NCBI GenBank assembly: GCA_000002445.1
Contig: AL929603.2
Location: forward strand, 480,001 to 544,000
DNA from: Trypanosoma brucei
Lineage: Eukaryota
DNA length: 64,000 nucleotides
Reading direction: 5' to 3'
Both the position numbers and the translations under genes were made by a program. Below, piece by piece: positions 1,678 through 44,287 of the stretch. The notes under the pieces are model-generated. The model saw only the letters and a program-made list of their open reading frames with translations, made no database searches and had not been told where the DNA came from. Within the stretch, counting starts at the first letter, position 1. Each line of letters starts with the position of its first letter.

Positions 1678-4095
1678 GCGTGCTGCGGCGCAACTTCATG
1701 AATCAAGTCACGGGAGCAACGAAATAAGAATATCAAAAGTCTTAAAAATGAGGAAAACAAGAAGTGATCAAACGACGTTTACGATTGCTTATGCTAATTG
1801 GCTTTGAAAGGAAGAATTATCGCCATAGAAGAGAGAGAGAGAGAGAGAGAGTAAGGATGTCACTAACCCTATTTTCCTTTACAGTCGCTCAGTTTTGCTG
1901 TTTCTTCTTATATTCCCTTACAAATTTCCCTAGCTTTTTTTTATTTCCTTGTTCGCACGTATTCAGATTTGTTCTTTTCTTCTTTACTTCGTTTGTTGCT
2001 TGTGTTTTATTTTTTTTTCGTCATTTACAAGTTCTGTACTTTTTATTGTCGTTGTTGCCATTTGCTCGTTCCCACATGAGCGCTGCTAAAATCCCTTCTC
2101 CGCTTCTTCACTCCGGACTTACTTTTAGCTGCCATCCTTTTCATTGTTTGTTTGATGTTCCCCCCCCCCCCACGTGTTATCGCTCCGCATTTCATTTATT
2201 TATTTATTACAAAAATATATGAACAAACAAAGATATGCGCACGCATGTGTTTGAGGGCATTTGTATATTTGTGAATACGTCCCTTGAAATGTGCCACTGA
2301 ACCGCCCTATTTTCAAAAACAGATCGGTCGTCGTATTATTGCTATTTATTTCCATTTTTTTTTTTCATAAAACCAGGTACACCAAAAAAAAAATTGAAAG
2401 AATTGTTGGACGAACTTGCGCTTATGAGCTCACTTAGTTAGCGGGTACAAAATGAATAAAATAAATAAATAACTTTTTTTTTTAAAGTGCGGGGATAAAT
2501 AAAAAATAACACAAACAGCTGAACTTCTAGAAGAGGTGTCTTGACCACTTTTTTTTTTATTCACTTCGTTTTGTTCCCATACCTTAATCTCGTTCGCCTT
2601 TTTCAATCATTAAATAAGCTTCCATTATTACGATTGAGAGTTTTCGCTTTATTTATTTTCCCGTAAATATATATATATATATATATTAGAAGTGAAAGAA
2701 CGAATAAATAAATAGTGAGGTGCTCCCTTAACGGAGTGAATTCTGTTATGTTATGTTTTTTGTTAACTCTTCTCTTCATTTTTTTTTCGCGCGGTTAAGA
2801 ATGGAGCTCCGCTCGAATTGCATTTGAGTACTGAGCTTTCCTGCTGAAAGTGAGGGAACTGCTTTCGAAGTAACATACGGATAAATTTGCCGTTTGTTTG
2901 AAAATTTACTAATTTATTTGTATTTTAATTTTTTATCTATTTCCTTTGTGTCCTCATTCCTGCTACATTTTTTTTTATAAGTATTGAGTTGCAGAGCTTA
3001 GGAGGAATAAACACGTAGTTTTTTTTTTTACTGCATCATTTTTGTTTGTTTGAGACCTCCGGAAGTTCCTGGTTTTCTCCCTTTTTATTTATTTTGTTTC
3101 ATTTGTGTTTGATCATATGTATTCGCTTATTAATATTTTTGATTCATCTGCCTGTGTGCATTACTAGTGATTTTATAGTGGGTGGGCATCGGAGTAGTGA
3201 ATTGTTTGTTTGTTTTACCCTCAATTCCGCACTATATATATATATATATTTATTTATTTATTTACTGTGTTGTTTGTGTTGTTAACATTGCGATCGCCGT
3301 TTGCTACTGTTTGCTCGCAGTTTTAACACATAGTTTATTTAATTATGTGTTTGAGTTTATTGATGTTTATGATATTTGTGTTTCGGATGTATTTTTGTTC
3401 GCAGTGGGGCACCGCTGGACGCTTTCGCGCAAAAAATAAATATACGTTAATTTTGAAAGCGCTGGGAGGTTAGGTGTTGCGGAGAAGCCGCATAATTTTT
3501 TTGATACCTTTTCGCGTGTTGGTGTTGTTGTTTTTTGACGTGCCGCAGCCGCAGCTTTAATTTCTAAGGAACTCAATGAGTTTACAAAAAAAGGAGGTAG
3601 GGCGCCTTCGGGTGGACATTTTGTTGGTTCTCAAACGTCATTTTTTTTTTTAATAAATAAATAAATATATATATATATATATAATGTACTGCCAAATCTG
3701 TTGTTTCACCATCTCGTCATCACTACCACCGCTGCTTTGCTTAAGCAAGCGGCTGATGATATGTTCAAGTGTTCCCTCTCATTCCCGTTATTTCTTCCCT
3801 TTGCACGTGGCACAAGCACATCAGGGGACGGTGAAGAGGGAACCGAAGAATTCTTACAAAAAGAAAAAGACGTCGTAGTTCGCAATCAACTCCACAAGAA
3901 ATATATATATATATATATTTAAATATATAACTATTTAGGGAAGGGGAAAGGAAATAATAGAACGGAATCGTGAAAAACATACTATTGCTGCATGCTTGTG
4001 CGGGCGATAGTTCGGTGCTTGTCAACTTGCTATAGTTCCTATTAGGAGCTCAGTTCCCGGCGTTGGTATTCCCTCCGCCACCAGTGAAATTATCA

Positions 4096-4140
4096 TATTT
4101 GTTGTTGTATTGTTTTATTTTTTTGTTTATCTTGAAATTT
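4096..4140 (+). promoter_or_regulatory. polypyrimidine tract (candidate trans-splicing signal) upstream of the 4190 ATG
   Basis: T/C-rich run (ttgttgttgtattgttttatttttttgtttatctt) about 50-90 nt upstream of the ATG, followed by AG dinucleotides. This is the typical kinetoplastid splice-acceptor context. Confidence 0.5.
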
Positions 4141-4189
4141 ACGACGGCCAACTGCGGGAAAAAGAGGAGGTAACTACGGAGCAGCGCAA

Positions 4190-20705: not shown

Positions 20706-20880
20706 TCTTGTGGTGATGTAATTCCTTTTTTGTTTTTTTCTTCCTTCGCCTCCCTCTCCCACTTGCCTCGCATATAAAATTGTCATTTTCTTCTGCCCTC
20801 CTCCTCGTTACTGAAGTTTCTCCACCTGTTTCACACTACCATTTTCGCTCCCGCTCCCCTTCTCGACATTTCTTTATAGG
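20706..20880 (+). promoter_or_regulatory. long polypyrimidine tract about 0.7 kb upstream of the TOR-family ORF (candidate splice-acceptor region; implies a long 5' UTR)
   Basis: ttccttttttgtttttttcttccttcgcctccctctcccacttgcctcg...ctcccgctccccttctcgacatttcttta. The DNA between this tract and the 21553 ATG is A/C-rich rather than pyrimidine-rich. Confidence 0.4.
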
Positions 20881-20893
20881 CTCTGTGGGTAGG

Positions 20894-20917
20894 ATATATA
20901 TATATATATATATATAC
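20894..20917. repeat. (TA)n microsatellite
   Basis: atatatatatatatatatatatat in intergenic DNA. Confidence 0.9.
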
Positions 20918-21552
20918 AATTGCACACAGAGCAATATTCGGGAGGATTAGCAACGAAAGAAGAAAGGGAGGTGTAAAGGCACAAAAAGTGGCAAAATATC
21001 ATCCCGACGGGAGTGCCAGAAAGTTTTACAAACGAGGACGTGAATTCCTTTCGAGGAAAGGACAAGGAAAGAAGACTGATACGCAGTGAAGTGAAGAAGT
21101 GAAAGCAAGTGATTGCACAACCAAACAAACCAAAAGGAAGTTCGTACGCAAGAAGTCACGGAAGCGGAAAAAGTGGAGGAGTACAGCACGGAGAAAGAAA
21201 GGAAGAAGAGGATAGGCACCTTGTGGTGTTGGCCCCGCTCAACGGTGTTCCGCGGGTAGTTATACGTTTCGAGGAGGAAAGCAGCTTTGTGCTCCCCCTC
21301 TGAAAACCACACACCATCTCATACACATACACACATAAAGCAGTGTACGCTTTTCTTAACATATACCACACGAGGCGAGAGTGTAGTAGCCGGTACCCAG
21401 CACGGCATTAGGCGCGGGAAGGAAAAGCAAAGGGGAGAGAAAGTATATTTATTTATATAGTTGTACGGAAAGAAGAGAAAAGTTGCAAGGTGTTCAGCGG
21501 ATTACACGAATTTGTAATCTCCCTGCCTCGCAGCGGTAGGTAGGGGGTTTCA

Positions 21553-24500
21553 ATGCCGCGTTACACCGCCATGCGACGTCTCGGTCCAGTGGGCCATAGC
21601 GGTGGAATAAGTTCAAACGGTGTCACCACTGTTGGTGCCGTCACCGCGAGTAATGTCGGTAACGGCGTTGTCAACATCGGCGGAGATGGATCTCAGGGCG
21701 TTGCAATGGGCCCCGGTGCAACGGATGTGGCTTCGGCTCGCCCGCTTCTTATTGTACCAAACACAACCTCCGCTGCTGGAGGCTCCGCAGACGTTAGTGA
21801 CGAGGAGGTTGATCAGTTATTAAGGGAGCTTGAACGCTCTGTCGATAGTCCACAGGCAGCTGCGGTTATGCGTGACGCTGTGTGGGCTATTGAGCGACGT
21901 GCATTTTCTAGTTGTGACCCCCATAGTCGTGATTATTTCCTCGAGAGTCGTGTTCGGATTATCCTGATGAGCCTGTCGACGACAAGTGACGTAAAGCAGC
22001 TTCTGCTGGCCGTGGACTTCATTGAGGCCCTACTCGCTGTACCGTACACCAACCTGCAACACCGATTCACAAGGCTATGTAGGAGTCTAATGAACATACT
22101 GCGCTGTGGTATTGAGGAACCGGCAAGGGAAGCGCAGCGTGTTTTAAAGCGCATGCTGGTGACTGATTCGCAGTTCGGTGCTTATCACACCCCGTTGAGA
22201 TCATTCATTACAAAGGAACTCCGCGACAACTGCAAGGTGGCGCTCATGCGGTTATATGGTAGGGCACAGCAAGCCAACGTGTCCTTCACGCCTGATTTTC
22301 TCTCTACCATGCTAGCAGCGGAGGCAACGGCAGAGATCAGTCCACGGTTCATCACGGGGACGCTTCGGCAGCAGGTTCTGGAACTGGCAAGTATGCTAGC
22401 AGGTTTCTCTGATCTGTTGCTCCGTCGTGCCGCCTATCGGTGTATGGTGGTATTGTTCAAAAACACAAGCGCAATGCGACGCAAGGAGGTAGTGCTTGAG
22501 AACCGCCGAATAATAAACGAGGCGATCCGTTCGCTTAATTTGAGCCACAATAGTGAGTCGAGCATCATCTCCACACTTGAGACGCTTCGCGCCCTCCTTA
22601 GCAGCAGAGGGGTGCACTGCATGGACAAGCAAGTGAATACGCTTCCTCAATTATGTGTACTTGTCACTGAGCAACACAGAATTTCGAAGACAACAGCAGT
22701 GCGCAACGCAGTTTGTGACCTCGTGCCTGTTATTGCTGAAACCGACATCAGCTCTGCTGCTCGGCGTACAACATATTGCGCCATTATCATGGAGCCCGTA
22801 AAAAACGTCCGCGACGATTCTAACAAAGACCTGGAGCTGCGAAATCTAGCGATATTCATACAAAATGTAGGTTACGAGGTGTTGGACTCAACTAACAGGG
22901 TAAACTTAGACTCCATTATCCAGCGCTACATTACGCGACGTGGGACAGAGGAGGAGTGTTGGCACATTCTTGCGGCCATCTGCAGCTCACGGGCGAGACC
23001 GGAGACGCAGCGTACTCACATGTGTAGCAAAACAAGTTATATAGCCATGTCCTCCTCCTCCGCAATGCAGAAGGGCTGCGAAACGATCCAGGGGCACCAA
23101 AGTGGGGGCGAGATTAGCTTATCCGCGCAAGAACTTCGTTCGGCCAGCGCTGAGGCCCATTCAGTTTGCCAGTTGGTGGCCGGAGAATCCCAAAACAGTT
23201 GTAATAGTCACGAGCTCATGCAACCTGTTGAGGCTCTTGTTCGGCGGTGTCTTCCCCACATGGTCCACGCCGTTCTTTCTGATGAATTTGTGCGTTACAT
23301 CACCATCATACAAGATCACCTTCCGTCGTTGAGCTCGGACCTGCAGACGTATCTCGACCAACTAGTAAATCGTACACTGAGGAACGATAAGCGTAAATAT
23401 TGTGGCGGTGAAGTGGAGGACGGCGCTCTCGTCGCTCAGGTATTTGCTGGGGACCGCCTATCGACGGAACTGGGGAACTCTCAGCCACAGGAAGACATCA
23501 TACAGTCATCCACATTAGCCTATGTCACCGCGATGGGGCGTTTAGCGCAATACTTACTACCTACCACCCTACCTGAAGGAGGTGCCATAAACTGGCAGCA
23601 GAGTCAAGGAGCAACAAGTACGACTGCCACTGATGGCAATGGTCAAGGTTATAGCTTAGGATCAGTGGAAACCTTTTGCAAAAGTGTGGTGGCTGGGCAA
23701 CCACAATTGGTATCGCCTGAAAGTACACTTAGTAGTGCCGCAGGAGCCACAACAGCCGAGGTTTGCAGTGGGGCAGCACCCGACTCTGTGGGTGCCTCAG
23801 AGCTCAAAATAGCGCTGGAGGTCTTTTCAAAGCGACAGATAACATCGAGCGATCAGCTAAGGGAAGTGAGTGACATTATCATTCAATACCAGCGACATCC
23901 GGACAAGCGGGTACGGCAGCAATGTTGTACAACCGTTATCGAGGCACTCAAGTGCTGGGCACGGTACTCACAAAGCGACCGAACATCAGCTTATTCAAGC
24001 CTGGTGCCGGATCTACTAGAAGTGTACTTGAAAAATGTCGCCATGGAGTTGGATCCGAAGGTGCGGCTTGTGGAAGTGACACTGCTAGCCGACGCTGTGG
24101 AGTTGCGAATGTTTCTTAGGGAAAAACGCATTATCGATACATTGATAAGTTTTCTGCACGATATATCGCATGTGCGTGAAAAGACCATGGAGCTGCTGGT
24201 GACGCTCGCGCAAGACAACCACACCGGTCCTTCGGTGGAGACAGTGCAGTATAGTCTACTCATTGTGGTGGAGTCTTCCGTGGCGGCGTTAGAGTACTCG
24301 AGCGATCCCCGCATTCTCATTCGACACATGTCAGACCTGCAAACGGTGGCTAAATTCAGTCTTAGGCCGCTAATGGGGCATCTGGATCGTACGTTTGTCG
24401 CCTGTCGCCGGCGCCTTGTGGAAGAGGTAGTACCTGACACCATTGCGTTGTCTACGCTCAAAACGTTGCGAACTATACTGGAGGCCATAAAGCGAGAGGA

Positions 24501-27500
24501 AGCTGTGCTTCTGAAATACAAGGACGTTGCATTGGAGTTGTATGCGCCGGTGGCAGTGGCTCTCCGCGCAAGTACCGCCTCGCCTCTCAGTCACGCAGCA
24601 ATCGGTGTTTTAGTGTGTATGCATGAAATCGGGGCATCACCGTTGAACTGGGATGCTCGTCAGTTGCATGAATTGTTGCAGTCCGTCACCGCAGTATACA
24701 TCGAGGCGGCAAACAGCACGGAGGAGGAACTGGGGCGGGCACTCACACTCTTTGGGCAAATTGGTGCGGTAGACCCGGCCACAAAACCTGATACAGCCGC
24801 GATGAAAAAGAAAGATGATGAGGCGGCGATTCAAGATGAAGCGGACCTTGAGCTTACCTATGACTATACAAAGATTGTTTACCGCAACCTAAGTCGCATG
24901 CTAGACCTGAGCTTGTCGGAAAGCGTGTGTGTGCAGTCGATGTGCACATTATTGCATCTTGTGAGGCTCACTACCGACCGAAAGGAACTGATTGGTGGAA
25001 TGCACGCCATAAAGGCGATTCTTCAAATTGCCAGACGCGCCAATGATGCTCCTTTGCTTCGGATTGAAGCGCTCCACATACTAGCAGCCATAACTTCGCT
25101 GAGGCACGAGAAGGTGTGCAAAACGCTTTTGCCGGAGCTGGTTACGCTGTTCGAGCAGCTGTGGTATCCCCAAGACCATGCACTCTTTCGCGCAGTTCTC
25201 AACCTCGTTAGCGCGCTGAAACCAGGAAACCTGACAGGAAAAGAGCAATCGGAGGTTTGGCCGTGGTTGTACCCGCGCCTTGTGGACGTTGCCCTCCAGG
25301 ACCATACGGAAACCCGCGAGTTCTGCCTTCGTGTGGTGGGAATCATCCAGCACGCCAAGTATATCCCACCTCACTGTATTCCTATCGTGTTTCCTATGCT
25401 CACGCAGTTTGTTCAGCAAATGGATCAGTTGGCGGAGCTGCGCTCTCTTTCGCTCTGTGCGGCAATCCGAATCGTATGCAACCTTCAGGCAGTGCAGCAC
25501 CTACCCTCGCTGATGCACACTATCTGCACCCTTACGCGTCACTGTGACCTTACTGAGAACCTCGGGCCCCGCCTCTCCACACCGACGCTACATAGGTCGT
25601 TGAGGCTCCTTTCGAACACACATCCGAACGGTGAAGCGGATGTCAACGCACTGTGTGAGCGGTTGTGTGCCACAGGGAGTGAGGGAAGTGCGGATGCAGG
25701 TGGTTGTTTCACGAATGAAGGAGGCGAGACCTTGCCGACGTCAACACAGCCAAACTCGTCTTTCCATTGTGGTAACGGTGATTACGCGTCTGCACCATAT
25801 CTTGGGCAGTACACTCAAAAATGCCAGCAGCAACAGCAAGGGGGGACATATTTAGACCCCAACGACGACGAAGCGTACGATACGCTGCCGCAGGGTCAGC
25901 AGGACATAACGGCATTTATGAAGCATGTAGAATTTGGGCTCCGAGCAAAGGATAACAAGTGGCGCGAATGGTTCGCAGAGTTTCAGAAGAACATGATAGT
26001 TGCCTCTCCGCACCCCGTCTTCCGTATTATGGTAGACCTCTTTGATAAGCACGAACCATTGAGGCGAAAGCTGTTCCATCCATCCTTTAAGTGTTTCTAC
26101 GAGTCGCTGAATGCCGAGCATATGAAGAAGGTGAAAGATGTTCTCAACCTTGCCCTCAGGTCAAGTGATACCGAGGTTGTGTCCAAGTGCATTGGGCTTG
26201 CGGACTACCTCGACCATAACCCACCGAACATAAGTGAGTCCGTGCTACAACAACTGCGTCATCTGGAGGGCAATGAGCCTATGGATGTGGGTAAGTTCAC
26301 TAAACATAGCAATTTGCACGTCGGCAACGTGATTGCTGGAAGTAGAAGTCCAACACCCGCCTGTCGTCACGAACCTGGGGGGTATTACGCCTCCCACCAC
26401 GGCCAGCTTTACAGAAATATCAGTGATAACTATAATTTTGAGTCTGTGTTGCACTCACTCAATTCACCCAAAACAGAAGGGCCCGTTTTCAACGAAGGCG
26501 TACGTCCGCCTTCTCATAAGGTTCAGGATGTGGGTAACGGAGAGCATGAAGTCACTGACAACGGGGGGACCGACAGTGGATGTGGCGTTGAGCGGAATGG
26601 TAAGGAAGGTAGAAGTGAGAGTGAAAGTGGTGACGTCAATGGAAGCGCTCGCCGCCAGACCATGTTACCTGTGGCCAAGTCAATTGAGGGTGATACCAAC
26701 GAGGGTCTAAGTTTTCTCGCTGGGCCAGTCGCGAGGCGCATAACGGTATCCGCACATCACACCACAAACGTTAATGCATCCGATGGCACTTGCCCCAACA
26801 CCGGCGATGCAGAGGTTCACATTCGTGCCACAGCCATACCCAGCACAGTCAACCCACTGTTTACAAACGATAGCCTCGTAGAGGCTGCCCTTCGGACGCG
26901 GATGCCTGACAAGGCTATGAGTTATCTTGAGAACAAGTTACTCCCAGTTATGCAGAAGTATCGCTACGCCCACAGCGTACCTAAGGAGGCTGTGCAGGCA
27001 GTCGTCCTCCCACTCGCCTCTCTCTACAGTCGGCTCGAAATGCAGGACTCAGTGGTCGGGCTTTTCCACGCGATGCGTTACAAAAGCGATAATGAAGACG
27101 GGTTTGCCTATGAGTTATTGCAGTGGTGGGATGTGGCACAAGGCGTGTATGCAACCAAGGTACATGATTGCTGTGGAAGTTCGGCTCGTGATATTGATGG
27201 TTACGTGAGGATGCTTTGTCTGTGTGGAGAGTGGGAGCGCGCTCTGCAGGTCGTGAAGGACACCTACAAATCCCTCGACCAACCATCGTCCACCATTGCG
27301 CAGTCGGGTGCGATGGCAGCGTGGATCCTTGGTAAATGGGATGACGTGAAAATGTTGATAGAGCGGCTTCCAAACAAAGAGAAGGGAAATATTACGCTTC
27401 GACACTTCTTTCAAAACGCCACGCTTTTCCACCAAGAGTTCGGTTGCCGGGCACAATGGGATTGTGGGGTTCAGGACGGGCAGAGGCGCTTGGAGACTTC

Positions 27501-30264
27501 GCCCCAGGTAGAAGCCCTCCGCGCGTCTATCATGCGGGCGAAGATGGAGGTAGATGAGAGCCTTAAAACGTTGTTGCCACTCAGTTACGCGCACGCATAC
27601 GAAAATCTCACCATGTTGCAGCACTTCACCGAAATGGAGGAGCACATTGCCTACATGGAGTCGCGAACGGAGGAGTTTCGGGGCCAACTTCGGGAGCGTT
27701 GGAACCGTCGCTTCGCTGCACTGAAGCCGGATTCGCTTATGCCCAACCTACGCTCCCTTATGCTCCACTCGCTTGTGCTAAATGCGAGTGAAATGTCCGT
27801 GATGGTTGTCAACTTCTGTGAGCGGACTGGGACGAATTACCCTCAACTGTCAAAATGGGCTATGGAGTGGCTTAAGCAAGGCAAGTTTCCTCGTGCCAAT
27901 CATTTAAGTCAGTCGTGTCACGTACTCCCTGCTACTCCGGTCAGTTTAGAGCCGTGTGTGGCCATAACATACATTGGCCAAGTGTGGAGTGGCGGTCAGC
28001 GGCAAAAGGCAGTGCAACTGATGGAGAATTTCCTGGAGGAAACGCATTCTACACTGGAAGAGCAGCAGCCAGCTGCCTATGGTGTCGCGCAACTTCGTTT
28101 AGGTATGTGGAAGCAGGAGATGTTTGCAGATTCTTTTTGGAAGGTTGAACACCGCCAGGAAGTTTTACGGCACTTCCATGAGGCGGTACGCGCCGTGCCC
28201 GGAAGCTGTGAGGCGTGGCATAGTTGGGGGTTAATGAACTACCGAGTGCAGCAACGCGATTGCTCACTATCTCGTTATGAGCAGCGCCTCTTCGTCGAAG
28301 CCGCGCATCAGGGGTTTGTTGCGGCTATCTGCCGCAGTGCAAGTCCCTCTACTGCTCTTCCTGGCGTGATGCGTCTGCTTCAGTTGTGGGTTTTCCATAA
28401 TGGAATGTCATTACTGAAGGAATCGGTGGCAGACAGCGTCGCCCGAATCCCCACTGATTATTGGGTACAGGCAATTCCGCAGCTGATCGGTCACTTGCGC
28501 AGCGCAAGCCACGATGTACGTGACGTTGTGAGTATGATTCTTCAACGACTGTGTGTTGCACATTCCCAAGCTGTTGTTTTTCCGCTGTTAGTTGTGCTTA
28601 TGTCCGCTGATGGCGGTGGAGGGGAGACGCACTCTCGTCGGAAGGAGTTGGCGCGATCCATCATTAACAATCTTCCGAAGCGCATCCGCGCTGAGGCGGA
28701 GTTAGTAGCCACCCTCTTAATTAATGCATCGGCGACTCCCATTGAACGGATAGGGGAAAGTCTCAGTGCGGTGGCGACGGCATGGAACCCGAACGCAGAG
28801 TACGAAGAAGACAAGGAAGAGGTACGACGAAAACTAAGATATGTGCTTGATGTGTTCAATACTAACCGGCGTCAGCTGCTCTACAACGTGGGTGATATTG
28901 GCCAGTATGTGAGGATTGTCATGGAAGAGGACGCGTGCGGCCGCAGGGAGAAGGCAAGTGGCATTCTCACCCAACTAGTGGAAGAAATCACGAAGCACAT
29001 TTCGGAGAAACTGGGAAAAGAGCCTCAGAAGGCGATGGAACCGCTACTGAACCTCCGCAATCTTTCAATAGCAGTGTTTGGAGAGTATGATATTCAGTAC
29101 ACCAACTTTCCTACTATCGCGTCGTTTAGTTCAAAGCTTGATGTTATTCCCTCTAAGAAGCGTCCACGCCGCATCCGCCTCAGCGGCTCTAACGGTTGCA
29201 TGTACACATATTGCCTGAAGGGAAATGAAGATATACGTATGGATGAACGGGTCATGCAACTGTTTGGTATGGTGAATGTTCTATTAAGTGATGCCAAAAC
29301 CGCGAAGAGTGCATTCATACACCGCTTCCCAGTAATCCCCATCAGTGATAACGTTGGCCTGCTCGGTTGGGTAGAGCACGCGAACACCATCAACAATACC
29401 ATCTGTACTCACCGCAACACCATTTCAAAGGTACGAACGCATCATGAGTCCAACACCCTTAGGGCCTATGTTGAAACCATCGGGAGTTGGGAGAAACTCA
29501 GCATGATACGTCGCACAGAAATACTGGACTACGTCATGTCGCAGAAGGATTGTGAAGCAGTGGATGTTGCGCGTGCCATGTGGCATCGGTCAAATACAGC
29601 GGAGCAATGGTTGGAGCGCCGCACGGCCTTCACGCAGTCGTTGGCCACCATGTCGATGGTTGGTTACGTGCTTGGGCTTGGGGATCGTCATCTGGGCAAC
29701 ATTCTCCTTTCGATGTCCACTGGAAAAATCGTACACATCGACTTTGGTGACAGCTTTGATGTCGGTCGGTTGCGCCATGTACTTCCAGAAACCGTTCCAT
29801 TCCGGCTCACGCGCATGCTAACGAATGCAATGGAAGTGTTTGGTGTGGACGGTGTTTTCCGCGCCTCATGCAACCGCACACAGTCAACGCTGCACAAGAA
29901 CGCAGACAGTATCATGGCGCTTCTCACCGCTTTCGTACACGACCCCATTGTTCAGCACAAGGGGAAAATGCGGAACATGATGGAGAAGAGCCGCACCCCG
30001 CAGAACATTGTAGAGCGCATACGTAACAAACTTCGTGGGACGGAAATGGCGGTGAGGAATGCTGATACGGTGATATTTAACACGGTACTGGAGAGTTCAC
30101 GAAGGCCGGACCTTCTCTACATGTCACATGCCTTCAATGATGTTGCGAAGCGGACGGTGGTGAATGGACGGACAACAGAGGAGCAGGTGTCGATGTTAAT
30201 TGATGAGGCGACGCGATTGGAGAATTACGCCGCGCTCTACTTTGGATGGGGACCGCTGTGGTGA
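21553..30264 (+). CDS. TOR4: TOR-family phosphatidylinositol-3-kinase-related kinase (PIKK); most consistent with trypanosome TOR4 (TOR-like 2)
   Basis: 2903-aa ORF with a PI3K/PI4K-type catalytic domain near the C-terminus. It contains the TOR-like LKGNEDIRMDERVMQLFGMVNVLL motif, the catalytic loop GLGDRHLGNILL, the DFG motif HIDFGDSF, and a FATC-type tail ending ...LENYAALYFGWGPLW. A HEAT/FAT-like helical N-terminal region runs about 2300 aa. The TOR4 call follows from size and neighbourhood (chromosome-1-like calpain array downstream) and is inference. Confidence 0.95.
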   Translation: MPRYTAMRRLGPVGHSGGISSNGVTTVGAVTASNVGNGVVNIGGDGSQGVAMGPGATDVASARPLLIVPNTTSAAGGSADVSDEEVDQLLRELERSVDSPQAAAVMRDAVWAIERRAFSSCDPHSRDYFLESRVRIILMSLSTTSDVKQLLLAVDFIEALLAVPYTNLQHRFTRLCRSLMNILRCGIEEPAREAQRVLKRMLVTDSQFGAYHTPLRSFITKELRDNCKVALMRLYGRAQQANVSFTPDFLSTMLAAEATAEISPRFITGTLRQQVLELASMLAGFSDLLLRRAAYRCMVVLFKNTSAMRRKEVVLENRRIINEAIRSLNLSHNSESSIISTLETLRALLSSRGVHCMDKQVNTLPQLCVLVTEQHRISKTTAVRNAVCDLVPVIAETDISSAARRTTYCAIIMEPVKNVRDDSNKDLELRNLAIFIQNVGYEVLDSTNRVNLDSIIQRYITRRGTEEECWHILAAICSSRARPETQRTHMCSKTSYIAMSSSSAMQKGCETIQGHQSGGEISLSAQELRSASAEAHSVCQLVAGESQNSCNSHELMQPVEALVRRCLPHMVHAVLSDEFVRYITIIQDHLPSLSSDLQTYLDQLVNRTLRNDKRKYCGGEVEDGALVAQVFAGDRLSTELGNSQPQEDIIQSSTLAYVTAMGRLAQYLLPTTLPEGGAINWQQSQGATSTTATDGNGQGYSLGSVETFCKSVVAGQPQLVSPESTLSSAAGATTAEVCSGAAPDSVGASELKIALEVFSKRQITSSDQLREVSDIIIQYQRHPDKRVRQQCCTTVIEALKCWARYSQSDRTSAYSSLVPDLLEVYLKNVAMELDPKVRLVEVTLLADAVELRMFLREKRIIDTLISFLHDISHVREKTMELLVTLAQDNHTGPSVETVQYSLLIVVESSVAALEYSSDPRILIRHMSDLQTVAKFSLRPLMGHLDRTFVACRRRLVEEVVPDTIALSTLKTLRTILEAIKREEAVLLKYKDVALELYAPVAVALRASTASPLSHAAIGVLVCMHEIGASPLNWDARQLHELLQSVTAVYIEAANSTEEELGRALTLFGQIGAVDPATKPDTAAMKKKDDEAAIQDEADLELTYDYTKIVYRNLSRMLDLSLSESVCVQSMCTLLHLVRLTTDRKELIGGMHAIKAILQIARRANDAPLLRIEALHILAAITSLRHEKVCKTLLPELVTLFEQLWYPQDHALFRAVLNLVSALKPGNLTGKEQSEVWPWLYPRLVDVALQDHTETREFCLRVVGIIQHAKYIPPHCIPIVFPMLTQFVQQMDQLAELRSLSLCAAIRIVCNLQAVQHLPSLMHTICTLTRHCDLTENLGPRLSTPTLHRSLRLLSNTHPNGEADVNALCERLCATGSEGSADAGGCFTNEGGETLPTSTQPNSSFHCGNGDYASAPYLGQYTQKCQQQQQGGTYLDPNDDEAYDTLPQGQQDITAFMKHVEFGLRAKDNKWREWFAEFQKNMIVASPHPVFRIMVDLFDKHEPLRRKLFHPSFKCFYESLNAEHMKKVKDVLNLALRSSDTEVVSKCIGLADYLDHNPPNISESVLQQLRHLEGNEPMDVGKFTKHSNLHVGNVIAGSRSPTPACRHEPGGYYASHHGQLYRNISDNYNFESVLHSLNSPKTEGPVFNEGVRPPSHKVQDVGNGEHEVTDNGGTDSGCGVERNGKEGRSESESGDVNGSARRQTMLPVAKSIEGDTNEGLSFLAGPVARRITVSAHHTTNVNASDGTCPNTGDAEVHIRATAIPSTVNPLFTNDSLVEAALRTRMPDKAMSYLENKLLPVMQKYRYAHSVPKEAVQAVVLPLASLYSRLEMQDSVVGLFHAMRYKSDNEDGFAYELLQWWDVAQGVYATKVHDCCGSSARDIDGYVRMLCLCGEWERALQVVKDTYKSLDQPSSTIAQSGAMAAWILGKWDDVKMLIERLPNKEKGNITLRHFFQNATLFHQEFGCRAQWDCGVQDGQRRLETSPQVEALRASIMRAKMEVDESLKTLLPLSYAHAYENLTMLQHFTEMEEHIAYMESRTEEFRGQLRERWNRRFAALKPDSLMPNLRSLMLHSLVLNASEMSVMVVNFCERTGTNYPQLSKWAMEWLKQGKFPRANHLSQSCHVLPATPVSLEPCVAITYIGQVWSGGQRQKAVQLMENFLEETHSTLEEQQPAAYGVAQLRLGMWKQEMFADSFWKVEHRQEVLRHFHEAVRAVPGSCEAWHSWGLMNYRVQQRDCSLSRYEQRLFVEAAHQGFVAAICRSASPSTALPGVMRLLQLWVFHNGMSLLKESVADSVARIPTDYWVQAIPQLIGHLRSASHDVRDVVSMILQRLCVAHSQAVVFPLLVVLMSADGGGGETHSRRKELARSIINNLPKRIRAEAELVATLLINASATPIERIGESLSAVATAWNPNAEYEEDKEEVRRKLRYVLDVFNTNRRQLLYNVGDIGQYVRIVMEEDACGRREKASGILTQLVEEITKHISEKLGKEPQKAMEPLLNLRNLSIAVFGEYDIQYTNFPTIASFSSKLDVIPSKKRPRRIRLSGSNGCMYTYCLKGNEDIRMDERVMQLFGMVNVLLSDAKTAKSAFIHRFPVIPISDNVGLLGWVEHANTINNTICTHRNTISKVRTHHESNTLRAYVETIGSWEKLSMIRRTEILDYVMSQKDCEAVDVARAMWHRSNTAEQWLERRTAFTQSLATMSMVGYVLGLGDRHLGNILLSMSTGKIVHIDFGDSFDVGRLRHVLPETVPFRLTRMLTNAMEVFGVDGVFRASCNRTQSTLHKNADSIMALLTAFVHDPIVQHKGKMRNMMEKSRTPQNIVERIRNKLRGTEMAVRNADTVIFNTVLESSRRPDLLYMSHAFNDVAKRTVVNGRTTEEQVSMLIDEATRLENYAALYFGWGPLW

Positions 30265-30705
30265 AGGGGACCTTGCTGCAACTATGTGCACACTTATATT
30301 ATTTCACTTAGTGTAAATATATATATATATATTTATTTATTTATTTGTATACCTCAGTGCTTATTTCGTGCCCTTATCCTGCTCCCTTACGGTCACCTTA
30401 CAGAGAAAAATAAAATTAAAATAAACCAATGATCCAATAAACAATAACAAAACGCATTAGTTACCCCCTCTTTCCCGCTTCGATTTTCGCTGTTTCTTTT
30501 TTTTTCCTTTTGTTTTTTGGGGGTTTTGGGGGTTTTTTCATCACCCCCAACCCCTATCTTCCTGTATTTCATTATTATTACTATCACTGCAGTTCATGAA
30601 GTGTTTGTGGGCGCTGTTATCATTATGGTCCTTTTTTGTTTGTTTGTTTGATTGTTGTTGTCGCTGATGGTGTTCCTCATGTTGATTGAAACTCGCCCCT
30701 GTGCA

Positions 30706-30762
30706 TGTGTGTGTGTGTGTGTGTGTGTGTGTTTGTTTGTTTGTTTGTTTGTTTGTTTTTTT
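30706..30762. repeat. compound (GT)n-(GTTT)n microsatellite
   Basis: gtgtgtgtgtgtgtgtgtgtgtgtgtttgtttgtttgtttgtttgtttg in the 3' flank of the TOR gene. Confidence 0.9.
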
Positions 30763-32990
30763 TAACCTCATCCAATTTCCCCACTACTGATGCTGCTGTT
30801 GCTAATAATAATAACAATAACAGTAATAATATCATCATTATTATTAAGAAATTATTCCTCTTTTTTCCCCTCCTTTTTGAGTCTTATTTTCTTTTCTATG
30901 AAGGAGAAAAGAAGAGAGACTTTTTTTGGAGTTACGGCAGAGGTAAAGTAAGTGGATGATTGAAGTGGGAAGGAGGGGTTGTTATTGACCTTTTTCTTTT
31001 TTTAAAAAAAAAAAAGACGAGAAAAAAAATATATATATATATATATATGTCACCGTTGTTCTTCAACCTTTGTTTTGTTACAAATCCTTCTTGTTTTCTT
31101 TTTGTTACCTCTTTCTTTATTTCTCTCCCTCTCTCTTCCTTCTCCCTAACGCGCGAACACAAACAGTTCTCAAACCTTCTGTTCCTTCCCTTTATCTCAT
31201 TACCCTTCTTTCTTTTTCTTTTTGTTTTGTATTTTGTTTTATTTTTATTCTCCCCTTAACTGTCTACCCTTTCTTGTTTTGATTCCATTTTATATATCAC
31301 AGCGCTCATATATTTACACCCAATACACGCAACTCTGCGCATTTCTCATACACGTACGTAGATATATTAAGGGAGAAAAAGTAAAAATAAAAATAAAAAA
31401 GAGAAAGACAAAGACAAAGAAGGGGACGAAGGGACTACTTTAAAAAAAAAAAAAGTAATAATAACAAAAACGAAATTAAGAAGATGAAGACGATGAAAAT
31501 GAAAATGAGCGAAACGTAATTCCTCCAAACGGGACCACTAACGCCAGGGAATACACGCAATAAAAACAACAACAAAAAAACAAAAACGAAAATACAAAGT
31601 CAAAACTCAACTCAGGTGCATGCGGACGCGGAAGGGTCAAAAAAAAAAAAGGCAAATCAAATCAAATCAAAATGGTGAAAAAGTGGTACGAGAGCACTTC
31701 GGAAAATTTGCTGCCGATGATTTATTTATATTTCCCCTCAGACAAGGAAGGAAAAAGAAATTAAGGAGTAGAATGAAGTGGAATGGAATGCTGGAAGTGT
31801 CGGACTTCATTTTTTCTTTAAAAAAAAAACAAAACAACTTAGCAAAACAAACGAACAAACAAAATCAGAAATATGCTCCAATAAATATAAGAGCGTCTAC
31901 AAGCAAAAAAAAAAAGAAAGAAAGAAATGGAAAGCAGTTAAGCGGAACCCCCAAAAATTGTTAGGTAAAATTTTTTAAAAAAAATAGGAAAAGCAATGAG
32001 AGAAATGGAATTGCGAATGGGGAGGACTAACATTCCACTGCGATCCATCCGGTGTTTCTTTCGTGGAGAAGTGGTGGTGGGAAACGAACAGCACAAAAAG
32101 AAAAGAGAAAAAGGAAAGGAAAGGAAAGGAAAACATAAGGGGGAGGCTTATCCCTTTTTTAATTTTTTTTTTTTAGTTTTGGTGTTTGGTTCCTTTGCTT
32201 CTTCTCCTTCTTTGTTTCGTTCTCCTTCTTAGCTTTCAAATATTACATATTTCACTTGTATTTGCAATGATTTTGTTTCTTTATTTCGCCCACGTGACTT
32301 TGTTCCCGTTTGCTTTTTTCCTTTGGGAGTTGGTTTGTTTGTTTGTTTTTCCCCGCGCTGCTGCGAATAAATTGTCCATTCCTCCGCTCCTTCACCCGAA
32401 TTCAGTCAATTATGATGTTTTGATTTTTATTTTTTGATTGTCGTTAATTTGTTGTTGCTCTTATTTTCTTATCGTCTTTTTTTTTGTTGTTATTATTGGT
32501 TTGTTCATTCGTTTGTTTGCTGGCGTAATGGAGGTGAGACAACAGTTACAGATTTTTCCCCCTCTTAATTTAGCATTCCGAAGTAAAATGTTTATAATGT
32601 TACTTATAGTTAATGCTCAGATATTATTATTATTATTATTGTCAGTATTTTGTATGTATTTTGTGTGACTATTGTTTTGTTGGTGTTGGTGCTCCCCTTT
32701 TATTGGTTGGTTATGAACGATATTCTTTCCATATTCAATGGAAAATCGTTAGGTTCCCTTTAAATTTATTTATTATTATTATTACATGGTATGTCTTGTT
32801 TTAATATATTCTTTTTTTTTATTTCCTTTTGTCTTTTCGTGTGTGTGTGTGTGTGTTTGTGTCTGTTTGTATTTAAATTAATATAATTGACGACACGGGT
32901 GGGAGGAGGACTTATAGAAGGAAGCAGGGGGTTTTTCAGATTTGTGTTTATGGTGGCAGCTTGGGGGAAAAAAGAGAGAGGGAGGGAGGG

Positions 32991-33007
32991 AGAGAGAGAG
33001 AGAGAGA
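32991..33007. repeat. (GA)n microsatellite with adjacent (GGGA) motifs
   Basis: gggagggagggagagagagagagagagaagg. Confidence 0.8.
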
Positions 33008-34038
33008 AGGAATAAGAAAAAAAAAATTTAATTTTAAAAAAGAAAAGAAAAGGGGTCGTACAATTTATTAGTCAGGGAATGGATGTGCAGGGAAACAAGA
33101 TGTAATAAAGGTCAAGGAAAATTAAAAAAGGAAAAGAAAAAATAAATGATTGTTCAATGATTGTTGGCGTCCTTATTATCATCATCACGTATTTCTTTTT
33201 TCCCTTTACTTCTCCTTCACCGATTTTGTTGATTTATGTATTCATTCCCATATTAACCCACGACAATATTGTGAAAGAACCAGTGATAATGCGGTATTAT
33301 GCATAGTAAAATCCCGACAAAAGGAAAGTGAGGAAAAAAAAGGAAGCAGAAAATTAAAGTAACGATTGAAATGACGTTTTTGGAATGGAAAGGAAGAGAA
33401 GGAAAGAGAAAAAAATATGAGCAAGATGGAAAAAAGCGAGGTTGGGGGAGGGAAAAAAAGGAAGAAAAAGTGAAATAAAATAAAATAAAATGGGAAACTG
33501 GCACAGTTTGTTTAGTAGGGTGTGAAGAAATGAATGTGCATGCCTCTCTCACTTTGCGTGCGTATATGCTTTTTTTTTCCTGTTTAGCGTCAATGGCTCA
33601 AGGTATGTAGAAGATCCTCAGCAGTGGTTCAGTCAGGTAAAGTAAAACAAAAAAAAAAAATAGAGGACAGTACAGGGAATCACGAATAAGAAAAAAAAAC
33701 TAGCAAGTATAGTTGACATCAAATATGTTTTGTTAGTTGCTTCCGATTTACCATTGTCATCATTATCATCTTGTTCTATATCGGAGTCTCCTCATTTTTT
33801 GCGGGGTGCCATCGCATTACGTTCATTCTTCCACATATTTCACTGCACACACGTACACTGCATCCGCTGCCTTCAAGAGAGAGGGGAAAAGAGGGAGAGC
33901 ACCAAAGTGCCTTGGACGGGAAGCGAAAATAAGTAATAAGGAACATTAATAATCATAATAACAATAACGATAAAAGTTAGACGACGAAGAACAAAAAAAA
34001 AAGAAATAAAAAACACAAAAAGATAACAGAAACAGGAG

Positions 34039-41079: not shown

Positions 41080-42462
41080 CTAAAACATACAAAAAAGGGA
41101 AAGAATTAATAGCATAACAACACCAGTTTTCACATCTATATAATAGAAACAATCATTATTTACCCCAGTATCATAACCTTCACTGTCACTTTCACCTTGA
41201 GCTCGGTTACTTTTCCATAGCCCAGCATCACCACCAAGTTTCACCTCAAGAAATATTTCCTCTGCCTCATGTTGGTATTCTTCCAATTCGTGAAGATGAC
41301 TGTCAGACTCTTTGGCATACTTTGCCATTTCTTGTAGTTGCTCGGTGGCGTTAGTAAGATGGTTGTACCAAGGAATCCCACCATTTTCAAGTGTGTGATT
41401 GTAACTGACACATGTGAATCCAGCAGTGTAACCCAGGCACGTGCTATTCTCGTTATGGTCTGTTCTCACGTAGCCAAGAATACCCTTTACCTGATGGCCA
41501 TTCTGTCCCAAATTCACTAATGCATCAAACTGAGCTAATGCACTCTTTAAGGTTTTCACATTAGATGCAACATTTTTGTATGCACAAGCCTTACTAATCA
41601 CATCCCAAGCCTCAGTATGGTTGTATTTTATTTTCTTAGGGTCGCACTTGCTGTTATCACCTTTACAAGAATCAGCCATCATAGTCCAACTACCATTTTC
41701 AGGTCTCCTTATTTCATCCTTGCAAGGACAGTTATATCCATTATATATATTGTCATCACTACTGTCTTCGACATCTGAATCATGGTGATGTGTCCCTCTC
41801 TCTTCTTTCTTAACAATGTCGATAGCCTCCCCAACACATAGGCAGAAGAAGTCATTAATTAGTGTCTTTCCAACTAGCTTGTCTCCAAAAGAACCGCAGC
41901 TCGTGGCTGCATTGTAGACACTATTGAACAGCAGTGATTTGTTTCCTCTCATGGCTTCCTCCAGAGTTTTATTCTCATTTCTTGCCACATCCACAGCGTC
42001 GCCATACACAGCTCTCAACATATTTTCCTCAGCAGAACGACTTGCATTTAGCGATCTTGTCCTATTCACTTCTATTTCTTCCTTAAGTTTTTTAGCCTTC
42101 TCAAATAGTTTCTTCATCTCCTGATATGCTGTCGTGCTGTTAGATGAATTGCTCGAGCCCTTATTGCCAGCAACAGTTTCTGCCTCACTGACCATTTCCT
42201 CCAACTTCTTCAGAATCTCTCCTTCCTTCTCACGATTCTTAAAGGAGGGTTGTGGGGCCTCTGCTTGCGTGATTCGGTAAATCCTGCACAGTGTCTCGAA
42301 TTCACCAACGTTGTGGTGCTTTTCTTCTTGATGGACATTATCCCTGATCGCCCTCCAATCAATCAACTCGGGGGTCCACTTGAAAGACCACATATCACCC
42401 TGAGAGGAAGGAGATAAGACAGCCGCAAGCAACGCAATGGCAAACACTGTTTCGCGCCTCAT
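41080..42462 (-). CDS. Cys-rich, heavily N-glycosylated surface glycoprotein with signal peptide and C-terminal GPI-type hydrophobic tail (VSG-like / VSG-related; family unresolved)
   Basis: The minus-strand ORF 41080..42543 encodes 487 aa. The most plausible start is the second ATG at 42462, giving MRRETVFAIALLAAVLSPSSQG, a classic signal peptide. There are many NxS/T sequons (NSS, NST, NRT, NAS, NKT, NKS, NGS, NHT, NAT) and about 16 Cys including paired CxC motifs (FFCLCVG, YNCPCKD). The N-terminal half is predicted helical with charged heptad-like stretches. The C-terminus, ...NNDCFYYIDVKTGVVMLLILSLFCMF, ends in a short hydrophobic tail typical of GPI-anchor signals. It is the only gene on this strand in the window. 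Confidence 0.75.
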   Translation of the reverse strand: MRRETVFAIALLAAVLSPSSQGDMWSFKWTPELIDWRAIRDNVHQEEKHHNVGEFETLCRIYRITQAEAPQPSFKNREKEGEILKKLEEMVSEAETVAGNKGSSNSSNSTTAYQEMKKLFEKAKKLKEEIEVNRTRSLNASRSAEENMLRAVYGDAVDVARNENKTLEEAMRGNKSLLFNSVYNAATSCGSFGDKLVGKTLINDFFCLCVGEAIDIVKKEERGTHHHDSDVEDSSDDNIYNGYNCPCKDEIRRPENGSWTMMADSCKGDNSKCDPKKIKYNHTEAWDVISKACAYKNVASNVKTLKSALAQFDALVNLGQNGHQVKGILGYVRTDHNENSTCLGYTAGFTCVSYNHTLENGGIPWYNHLTNATEQLQEMAKYAKESDSHLHELEEYQHEAEEIFLEVKLGGDAGLWKSNRAQGESDSEGYDTGVNNDCFYYIDVKTGVVMLLILSLFCMF

Positions 42463-44287
42463 CGTGATTTTGCCTCTACATTCATTAGTCAAAGAGAGGG
42501 ACAAAAGCTTATCATTACAGTCATTATTGTTATTGAGAGACACACCCAGTAAACAAATACATCAATATATCGAAGTTAATAAGTGCCTGGGACAAACCAG
42601 CTGCTGCAGCATCCAACAAAGGGGGAAACACACACCAATACACATATTTACATGGGTTCACCCTCCTAAGCTGCATATTAACATTAAACACCCTCACAGC
42701 TGTTTTCCCATTGATTATCTTACTCTTACATATATCTGCATACAATAAATCCACTTTCTTAAACACCATGCTAGATCCTCCACTTTCCCAAGTGGACTGT
42801 GCTCCAGCCTTTTTGATTTCCTCAACAAGCTTATCTATTCTCCTATCGAGCACCTGTACATTTATGTTAAAATTATCCAAATCCTCCATTGGCTTTATTA
42901 ACTTCGGCTGCTACCTTATTGCTTTATTCGCTAGCACATTGCGTACTTAATCCGGACACATGTGTTACCTTTATCCAATGAACACCACTTTGCCGTTAAG
43001 CTTTATTTAGCATATCATCCTTTCTTCATGCATGTGCTGACACAACACTCTTCGTTGCCCTCTCTGCGTGCATGCACAGCTCCTTGCCTTCCATTTTCTT
43101 AAATCACACACTCTTAAAGGTAACAGTTAAATTTTCAAAACGCTTTCATTAGACACTTGTTTTTATTGAAACGTTTCATAATACTGTGATATGATGGAAT
43201 ATTATGTTAGTTGCCAACACACAAAACAGTCCCAGAACAACAAGTGACCTTCCCCATCAGCATCCTCATTTATATTATTTGCGACATAAAAATAATCACC
43301 ATCCTCTCAGTTAACTCTTGCCATCCTCACACCATATGCAAAGAGCATTAACACACTCCACCACCCCAGAGGAAAAATAATGGAGGGGCAGCCTTATTTA
43401 TCATCACTCACGATTAAAATAACTCAAAACAGAAACACTCCAACGAAAGAAATTATAACCTACGACAAACATGTAAGCACACACATGCAAAGATATGTAT
43501 GTTTATCACTATTGTGGGGAGGAGGAGTTATTTATATGAATGCACTTCCTCATAGTAATACAACTAGTACTATTCACACTGCCAATAAGATTCGTGTCGA
43601 GTTGCAGTTAGGCAACATTTCTGTTTACTTCGCTAAAGCATGAAAGGGTGTAAAAAATATATCTGACATCAGCTGGAGGTAAACGGAAGACGATTATTCA
43701 GTAGCATCGAAAAACAATGATGAGAGAAGTGAAGATGTCATGCACTTCATTGACAGAAAGAAAACATTTACATTTCACTAAACAATTAAAGTCATTTACA
43801 GAGCCACTCATAAATAAATTATCCCGTGGAATGGGGCACCTGCTTATGCTTCCACTGACACAATCCCATAATGGACGATATTCGCCATATTGGGATACGG
43901 ACTTACCTATTTAATATCACCCCATACCGTGATAACTGTCTCCATAATAGCCGTGTAGTACGTATTTGCTTTCACAAGAGCATTATATCATATATTGCTT
44001 ACTTCCCTGACACATTCATTATCTTCAGCGAATAATACACCAGCCTTAGCTACAAGATATCCCATTACACTCCAATAAGATATATGTTATCCCTGTCAGT
44101 CACTTTCACTCTGACATCAAACATACAGGATGCTATTGTGTATACTTCCCCATTAACAAACAAGTCCTGCTCCTCACCCCTAACGTAAAGTTCTCTTCAG
44201 TTTATTCAAAAGTTAACTAACACAACATACAAACATAATTAGCTTATATTTTGGGAAATCATATACTGATCCGCTGATACATGCTGC

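Follow-up and report, generated by a model that had tools for sequence, protein, structure and literature searches.

The protein kinase gene at 21553..30264 in a chromosome 1 stretch of Trypanosoma brucei is TbTOR4 (Tb927.1.1930), with a conserved, predicted helical bundle at the FRB position and an AUG-free leader

Identification of the gene as TbTOR4

A 64,000-nucleotide stretch of Trypanosoma brucei DNA (hereafter the window) contains, on its plus strand at 21553..30264, one long open reading frame (ORF) that starts with ATG and encodes 2903 amino acids plus a stop codon. We identify this ORF, with near certainty, as Tb927.1.1930, the annotated and experimentally studied kinase gene TbTOR4 (TOR-like 2). 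The coordinates are the decisive evidence: the published coding sequence (CDS) of Tb927.1.1930, at 501553..510264 of Tb927_01_v4 (tabulated in the supplement to Jensen et al., 2014; PMC4210626), equals the window positions plus exactly 480000. The same offset fits the starts of eight neighbouring genes (Tb927.1.1880,.1890,.1910,.1920,.1960,.1980,.2100, and.2110) and places the published spliced-leader (SL) sites directly after an AG dinucleotide in eight of the nine genes checked. The window therefore represents positions 480001..544000 of chromosome 1 of T. brucei brucei TREU927. A first-pass annotation, made by a model from the letters alone, had proposed TOR4 on the basis of size and neighbourhood, and the exact coordinate match bears this out. 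TOR4, formerly TOR-like 2, is the name given to Tb927.1.1930 in every paper that mentions the gene, with Barquilla et al. (2008, 2012) as the source papers (as cited in PMC3160303, PMC5461346, and PMC10933368). The gene and its function are thus already known, and nothing contradicts the identification.

The assigned start codon agrees with two published start-site datasets and is backed by the N-termini of orthologous proteins (MPRYSALRR in T. vivax vs. MPRYTAMRR in T. brucei). The gene order, consisting of a MORN protein, one further gene, TOR4, a zuotin-type DnaJ protein, YIF1, and PRP38, is identical in T. brucei, T. vivax, and L. donovani CP029519.1. Judging from accession order, the latter sequence is probably chromosome 20, which is also the location of LmjTOR4 (LmjF.20.1120). 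LmjF.20.1120 and the L. donovani orthologue share ~60% identity with T. brucei TOR4 over the C-terminal 40%, as well as its Pfam content without FRB and its MORN, DnaJ/zuotin, YIF1, and PRP38 neighbours. They differ in length (~3295 residues) and have longer linkers, including a FAT insertion of 301 residues compared to 231 in T. brucei. According to the literature, the function of Leishmania TOR4 is unexplored.

Placement in the TOR family

The FAT, kinase, and FATC domains named in the first-pass annotation were all matched by Pfam, in the order found in PIKKs and above the curated cut-offs: FAT at residues 1919-2277 (E 1.1e-21), PI3_PI4_kinase at residues 2551-2802 (E 1e-55), and FATC at residues 2874-2903 (E 7.7e-9). 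All 17 of the 17 retrieved TOR4 orthologues share this Pfam content, which matches the published description of TOR4 as having all TOR domains except FRB. In a phmmer search of the PDB, residues 2247-2903 scored 346 bits against mTOR, followed by SMG1 (162), ATM (143), and ATR (134). An AlphaFold model of residues 1704-2903 (predicted local distance difference test, pLDDT, 79.7; predicted template modelling score, pTM, 0.79) likewise gave mTOR as the best Foldseek match (template modelling, TM, score 0.70-0.77; E ~1e-39; ~1180 columns), with SMG1 next at ~1e-26. Human mTOR and yeast TOR2 (PDB 4jsn, 6bcx, and 6emk) are collinear with TOR4 in FAT, kinase, and FATC and have identical catalytic residues, at an identity of ~26%.

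Neighbour joining with the kinase domains of 56 PIKKs (200 bootstraps) placed the window protein in a TOR4-like clade with its orthologues from Trypanosoma, Leishmania, and Leptomonas as well as three environmental sequences (100% bootstrap). This clade grouped with the canonical TORs, apart from ATM, ATR, SMG1, and DNA-PKcs, again at 100% bootstrap, so that the affinity to TOR rather than to ATM, ATR, or SMG1 that was proposed at the outset is upheld. Among the paralogues, it is the coordinates, the synteny, and the domain content that assign the protein to TOR4.

The common possession of FAT, kinase, and FATC by all PIKKs, together with a weak, sub-threshold Pfam HEAT_ATR match (23.7 bits), could be taken to indicate another PIKK, of the ATM, ATR, SMG1, or DNA-PKcs type, rather than a TOR. 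However, no other PIKK scores more than half as high as mTOR, bootstrap support for the grouping with TOR is full, the Foldseek E-values of all other PIKKs are ~1e-26 or weaker, and the ATM and ATR of T. brucei are encoded by different genes according to the literature. SMG1 (PDB 7pw4 and 6l53), the next-best PIKK by both sequence and fold, reaches half the bit score, forms a separate clade in the tree, and has a specific domain, PF15785, that Pfam did not find in TOR4. The probability of a non-TOR identity is therefore negligible, and we concluded that the protein is a TOR-clade PIKK with FAT, a complete catalytic centre, and FATC.

The three environmental proteins in the clade (P0045, P0046, and P0048) are 41-53% identical to the C-terminus of TOR4 and have no Pfam FRB match, which suggests that the TOR4-like clade reaches beyond the sequenced trypanosomatids.

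Catalytic centre

All of the catalytic signatures quoted in the first-pass annotation were found by motif search (Table 1). In a residue-level alignment, Lys2556, Asp2711/His2713/Asn2716, and Asp2730 correspond to K2187, D2338/H2340/N2343, and D2357 of mTOR, respectively. The ATP-binding Lys, the DRHxxN loop residues, and the Asp of DFG are invariant across a 46-sequence alignment of TOR and TOR4 proteins. The kinase domain is also the most conserved part of TOR4, with 85-97% identity to other Trypanosoma. TOR4 is thus predicted from its sequence to be an active kinase and not a pseudokinase, as had been proposed. The strong divergence of the N-terminal 1390 residues and of the FRB position might instead suggest a catalytically dead scaffold, the phenotype of which would arise from complex assembly alone. 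Such a pseudokinase is hard to reconcile with an ATP-binding Lys, a DRHLGN loop, a HIDFG motif, and a FATC that are intact, or with the kinase domain being the best-conserved region, and we consider it highly improbable.

The FRB position

Lack of the FRB domain is a published hallmark of TOR4. In agreement with this, Pfam FRB (PF08771) gave no match to TOR4 at E up to 1 and none to any of its orthologues, whereas all but a few short fragments among the more than 100 canonical TORs listed carry the domain. The first-pass annotation had held that absence of an FRB-like segment N-terminal to the kinase domain would speak against a TOR; for a protein of which this absence is a known hallmark, that expectation was mis-specified.

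The FRB position is nevertheless occupied. The flanks on both sides are collinear with mTOR, and the aligned stretch that contains the segment (residues 2380-2498) spans 119 residues compared to 124 in canonical TORs. The segment is strongly conserved throughout the TOR4 clade (63-73% identity to T. brucei across Trypanosoma and Leishmania), and its EPQKAMEPL and VGDIGQY motifs are nearly invariant. A helical bundle was predicted with high confidence both in the context of the protein and for the segment alone from a TOR4-only alignment (pLDDT 81.7). At the positions of the mTOR rapamycin pocket, S2035, F2039, W2101, Y2105, and F2108 are replaced by Ala, Asn, a gap, Thr, and Ile, respectively. 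From these models and alignments, the bundle appears to be the FRB equivalent by position, length, and fold, remodelled in sequence and putatively homologous. Since the aromatic pocket is lost, TOR4 would be expected to be insensitive to rapamycin-FKBP12. The mTOR FRB also recruits substrates, as seen in PDB 5wbh, where FRB is bound to a recruitment peptide of S6K1; the remodelled bundle therefore probably selects different substrates or partners.

These features bear on the possibility that the gene encodes a canonical, rapamycin-responsive TOR of the TOR1/TOR2 or mTOR type that is longer only through low-complexity insertions. It would account for the top rank of mTOR among PDB entries in both sequence and fold comparisons, and for a FAT-to-FATC region that is collinear with mTOR down to a segment of FRB length. 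However, neither FRB nor the TOR-specific domain PF11865 was matched by Pfam at E up to 1, although nearly all canonical TORs retrieved carry FRB; the profile of the FRB position is dissimilar to that of canonical FRB; and the TOR4-like proteins form a fully supported clade of their own. In addition, TbTOR1 and TbTOR2 are other genes (Tb927.10.8420 and Tb927.4.420, respectively), and the coordinates refute identity with either, which leaves this alternative practically without probability. TbTOR3 (TOR-like 1, Tb927.4.800) is likewise a non-canonical trypanosomatid TOR but lies on another chromosome and has been described as having an extra PDZ domain, for which TOR4 showed no Pfam match.

N-terminal region, FAT, and variable linkers

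The N-terminal 1390 residues are conserved within the TOR4 clade but show no detectable similarity to the TOR HEAT region; residues 1-1390 gave no significant profile match to a full-length canonical TOR (hhalign probability ≤2.3%, with a single sequence as the template and hence limited sensitivity), and HEAT-like Pfam matches were only sub-threshold. We regard residues 86-1349 as a putative alpha-solenoid. Further downstream, hhalign aligned residues 1395-1564 with TOR 1178-1358 (probability 92%) and residues 1853-2903 with TOR 1411-2494 (probability 100%).

Five segments, at residues 1-85, 480-560, 600-750, 1350-1450, and 1560-1770, are of variable length and poorly conserved in all of the eleven aligned orthologues, and are probably disordered. 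The first of them shows 30% identity to Trypanosoma orthologues and ranges from 68 to 271 residues across orthologues. Orthologues are 2814-2967 residues long in Trypanosoma and reach 3150-3766 residues in other trypanosomatids; hence, the length of T. brucei TOR4 is unremarkable within its clade. The first-pass annotation had attributed part of the length in excess of canonical TORs to a Gln/Gly/Asp-rich insertion and a Ser/Gly-rich block. The excess lies in at least five variable linkers that all orthologues have, and the two blocks represent no more than two of these.

The compositional bias of the Gln/Gly/Asp-rich peptide (residues 1407-1451, nt 25771-25905; Q 22%, G 13%, D 13%) was confirmed, but the peptide is not a private low-complexity insertion. 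Its entropy does not fall below our low-complexity cut-off (3.3 bits in 40-residue windows), and it belongs to the linker just before FAT, which T. grayi, T. cruzi, T. conorhini, and T. vivax share in part. The C-terminal half of this linker is kept in Trypanosoma as PYL..Y...YLD..DD.YDT.PQGQQDIT, and its length is 75-86 residues in Trypanosoma and 112-140 residues in other trypanosomatids. The Ser/Gly block (residues 1660-1702, nt 26530-26658) was flagged for low entropy (G 16% and S 10% over residues 1650-1716) but does not stand alone, being part of an insertion of roughly 210 residues in FAT, where TOR4 has ~255 residues and mTOR ~40. Across orthologues, this insertion is 163-301 residues long with 11-30% identity, and AlphaFold pLDDT values below 50 at residues 1704-1765 predict disorder. 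It includes Ser1710 (nt 26680-26682), eight residues beyond the Ser/Gly block, a residue that Nett et al. (2009) found phosphorylated in bloodstream forms and that orthologues do not conserve.

Compared to window positions 20891-30723, five Logan assemblies of a second T. brucei-group strain (L001-L005, runs ERR7929159-64) showed 0.28% divergence. The CDS differences comprise 18 synonymous and 5 non-synonymous changes (E484G, A543G, V1002M, T1398K, and A1699V), four of the latter being located in variable linkers.

An AUG-free leader of 673 nucleotides

The polypyrimidine tract noted earlier at about 0.7 kb upstream of the gene was recovered by a tract scan as a region 0.67-0.83 kb from the ATG, with no tract of at least 15 nt nearer to the start. 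The long 5' untranslated region (UTR, or leader) suggested on that basis is confirmed by SL mapping: Additional file 6 of Jensen et al. (2014; PMC4210626) gives a 5' UTR start at chromosome 1 position 500880, a length of 673 nt, and 164 SL reads for this site (72.2% of all SL reads of the gene), the same as TriTrypDB v5. The genome-wide median is 87 nt. In the accessible supplementary text of the spliced-leader-trapping study by Nilsson et al. (2010), Tb927.1.1930 is not listed. In T. vivax, our scan upstream of TOR4 found no clear polypyrimidine tract and only 258 nt free of ATG.

The leader contains no ATG, compared to 8.3 expected from dinucleotide shuffles (none of 5000 shuffles was ATG-free) and to 16-17 ATG per kb in the flanking intergenic DNA. 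The ATG-free run extends over 834 nt upstream of the start, the nearest upstream ATG being at 20716. The TOR4 UTR is also ATG-free in the five assemblies of the second strain. The shorter leaders of neighbouring genes are AUG-free as well, and the TOR4 leader thus shows a general property in extreme form. A ribosome scanning this leader would meet no AUG before the TOR4 start.

The first-pass annotation had suggested that the long leader could carry regulatory upstream ORFs (uORFs). Control of TOR4 translation by uORFs would be in line with the length of the leader and with the stage differences in translation efficiency (1.48 in procyclic, 0.39 in in vivo slender, and 1.05 in cultured bloodstream forms). 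It is opposed by the lack of an AUG in the leader, which excludes AUG-initiated uORFs; by the absence of TOR4 from the part of the published table of uORF genes that covers the Tb927.1 entries and beyond; and by the general finding of Jensen et al. (2014; PMC4210626) that uORFs do not contribute convincingly to stage regulation. We therefore consider uORF control very unlikely. Near-cognate codons do occur in the leader (17 GTG, 4 CTG, 8 TTG, and 15 ACG), and any remaining uORFs could only be those that start at such codons. The same study reported TOR4 mRNA to be 3.8-fold higher in slender forms with unchanged ribosome footprints; its authors scored the gene as "not significant".

The leader also contains an (AT)n microsatellite at 20894-20916, which is longer in L001. 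All five Logan contigs start at 20891-20951, at or just after this repeat and near a single-nucleotide polymorphism, and none carries SL sequence. Given these neighbours of the contig starts and the missing SL sequence, we rejected the starts as a marker of the transcript 5' end.

Table 1. Features of the TOR4 gene and its leader in the window (nucleotide positions count from the first letter of the window)
Feature	Residues	Position (nt)	Strand	Basis and remarks
Polypyrimidine-rich region		20722..20877	+	Tract scan; tracts 20722-20760 and 20786-20806, pyrimidine-rich ~20840-20877
Major spliced-leader acceptor		20878..20880	+	Published SL mapping; AG 20878-20879, first mRNA base 20880 (chromosome 1 500880)
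5' UTR, 673 nt		20880..21552	+	SL site and sequence; 62% A+G, no ATG
TOR4 coding sequence (Tb927.1.1930)		21553..30264	+	ORF scan; published CDS 501553..510264
Gly/Val/Ala/Ser-rich variable N-terminus	1-85	21553..21807	+	Low entropy, composition
N-terminal region	86-1349	21808..25599	+	Orthologue conservation; linkers at residues 480-560 and 600-750
Variable linker just before FAT	1350-1450	25600..25902	+	Orthologue alignment; holds Gln/Gly/Asp block
First FAT helices	1464-1557	25942..26223	+	phmmer to mTOR and yeast TOR2; mTOR 1274-1368
Hypervariable insertion in FAT, predicted disordered	1560-1770	26230..26862	+	Alignment, AlphaFold; holds Ser/Gly block and Ser1710
FAT main body	1813-2277	26989..28383	+	Pfam FAT, phmmer to mTOR, hhalign
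Helical repeats between FAT and kinase N-lobe	2290-2386	28420..28710	+	Pfam HEAT_ATR, 23.7 bits (cut-off 27); mTOR 1920-2015
Predicted four-helix bundle at FRB position	2392-2489	28726..29019	+	FRB-equivalent by place, length, and fold, not by sequence
PI3/PI4-kinase catalytic domain	2551-2802	29203..29958	+	Pfam, mTOR alignment
LKGNEDIRMDERVMQLFG motif	2555-2572	29215-29268	+	Motif search
DRHLGN catalytic loop	2711-2716	29683-29700	+	Motif search
HIDFGDSF	2728-2735	29734-29757	+	Motif search
FATC, ends GWGPLW	2874-2903	30172..30261	+	Pfam, alignment to mTOR C-terminus
GWGPLW	last six	30244-30261	+	Motif search

Other features of the window

Downstream of TOR4 lies a 3.8-kb AT-rich spacer (30265-34038, GC 0.35) that contains Tb927.1.1940 (31620-31964), annotated as "hypothetical protein, unlikely" and without a Pfam match. 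A separate SL site for this gene maps to 31362 (223 reads, 46%), and its 258-nt leader contains four ATGs; the position of the SL site suggests that the TOR4 3' UTR ends before ~31.3 kb. Upstream, Tb927.1.1880 has a published 5' UTR of 2141 nt (2049-4189) with 21 ATGs; among the nine genes checked, it alone has a mapped start that follows TG instead of AG at offset 480000.

A minus-strand ORF of 487 residues at 41080-42543, matching Pfam VSG_B (E 4e-25), corresponds to Tb927.1.2040 (start at chromosome 1 522462) and is the only minus-strand gene of at least 200 residues in the otherwise plus-strand window. The GC skew is -0.22 over 40-46 kb, and the 13 kb around this gene (38.4-51.6 kb) contain no other ORF above 170 residues. 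Three tandem calpain-like genes follow on the plus strand (51583-55023, 56256-58325, and 60718-62916), each encoding DUF1935 and then Peptidase_C2; the starts of the first two coincide with those published for Tb927.1.2100 and Tb927.1.2110. A tRNA scan of the window found none.

Implications for TOR4 function

The literature describes TOR4 as the kinase subunit of TORC4, a complex of its own that maintains the proliferation of bloodstream trypanosomes and acts as a negative regulator of differentiation to the quiescent stumpy forms. The complex reportedly also includes LST8, Armtor, and major vault protein. TORC4 is described as inhibited by AMP or cAMP analogues, and RNA interference against TOR4 as resulting in slower growth with a G1/S phenotype and no induction of autophagosomes; the stability of tagged PIKKs, TOR4 among them, has been assayed under TEL2 depletion. 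Within this framework, TOR4 would phosphorylate Ser/Thr substrates by the mTOR mechanism, and at least one of its putatively disordered linkers is phosphorylated, at Ser1710. Three minor details appear new: the retention of a bundle where FRB would lie, the map of the linkers with the location of Ser1710, and the lack of an AUG in the leader.

Taken together, the protein and leader features allow a joint interpretation, in which TOR4 has kept the four-helix insertion of the TOR kinases while rebuilding its surface, possibly into a docking site specific to TORC4, and the AUG-free leader might provide translational control that is independent of uORFs. We offer this as a tentative interpretation that is, as a whole, unlikely. 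Some limits apply to the picture presented here. In a profile-profile comparison (hhalign), the TOR4 segment and canonical FRB showed 13% identity and a probability below 1%, that is, no sequence homology, and a fold search placed generic four-helix bundles above FRB. The kinase-domain tree was built without TbTOR1, TbTOR2, and TbTOR3 and so contains no kinetoplastid canonical TORs, and 28% of the TOR4 SL reads map to other sites than the major acceptor. If the joint interpretation is true, control through the AUG-free leader would be in line with a translation efficiency that is four-fold lower in in vivo slender than in procyclic forms.

As the leader is AUG-free, work on the translational control of TOR4 should turn to RNA-binding proteins or RNA structure and not to uORFs. 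The description of TOR4 as lacking FRB is better read as a conserved, remodelled bundle at the FRB position, and residues 2392-2489 provide a defined target for learning how TORC4 chooses its substrates. The kinase that carries this bundle helps to decide, in a role that is already published, between continued division of the trypanosome and arrest as the transmissible stumpy form.

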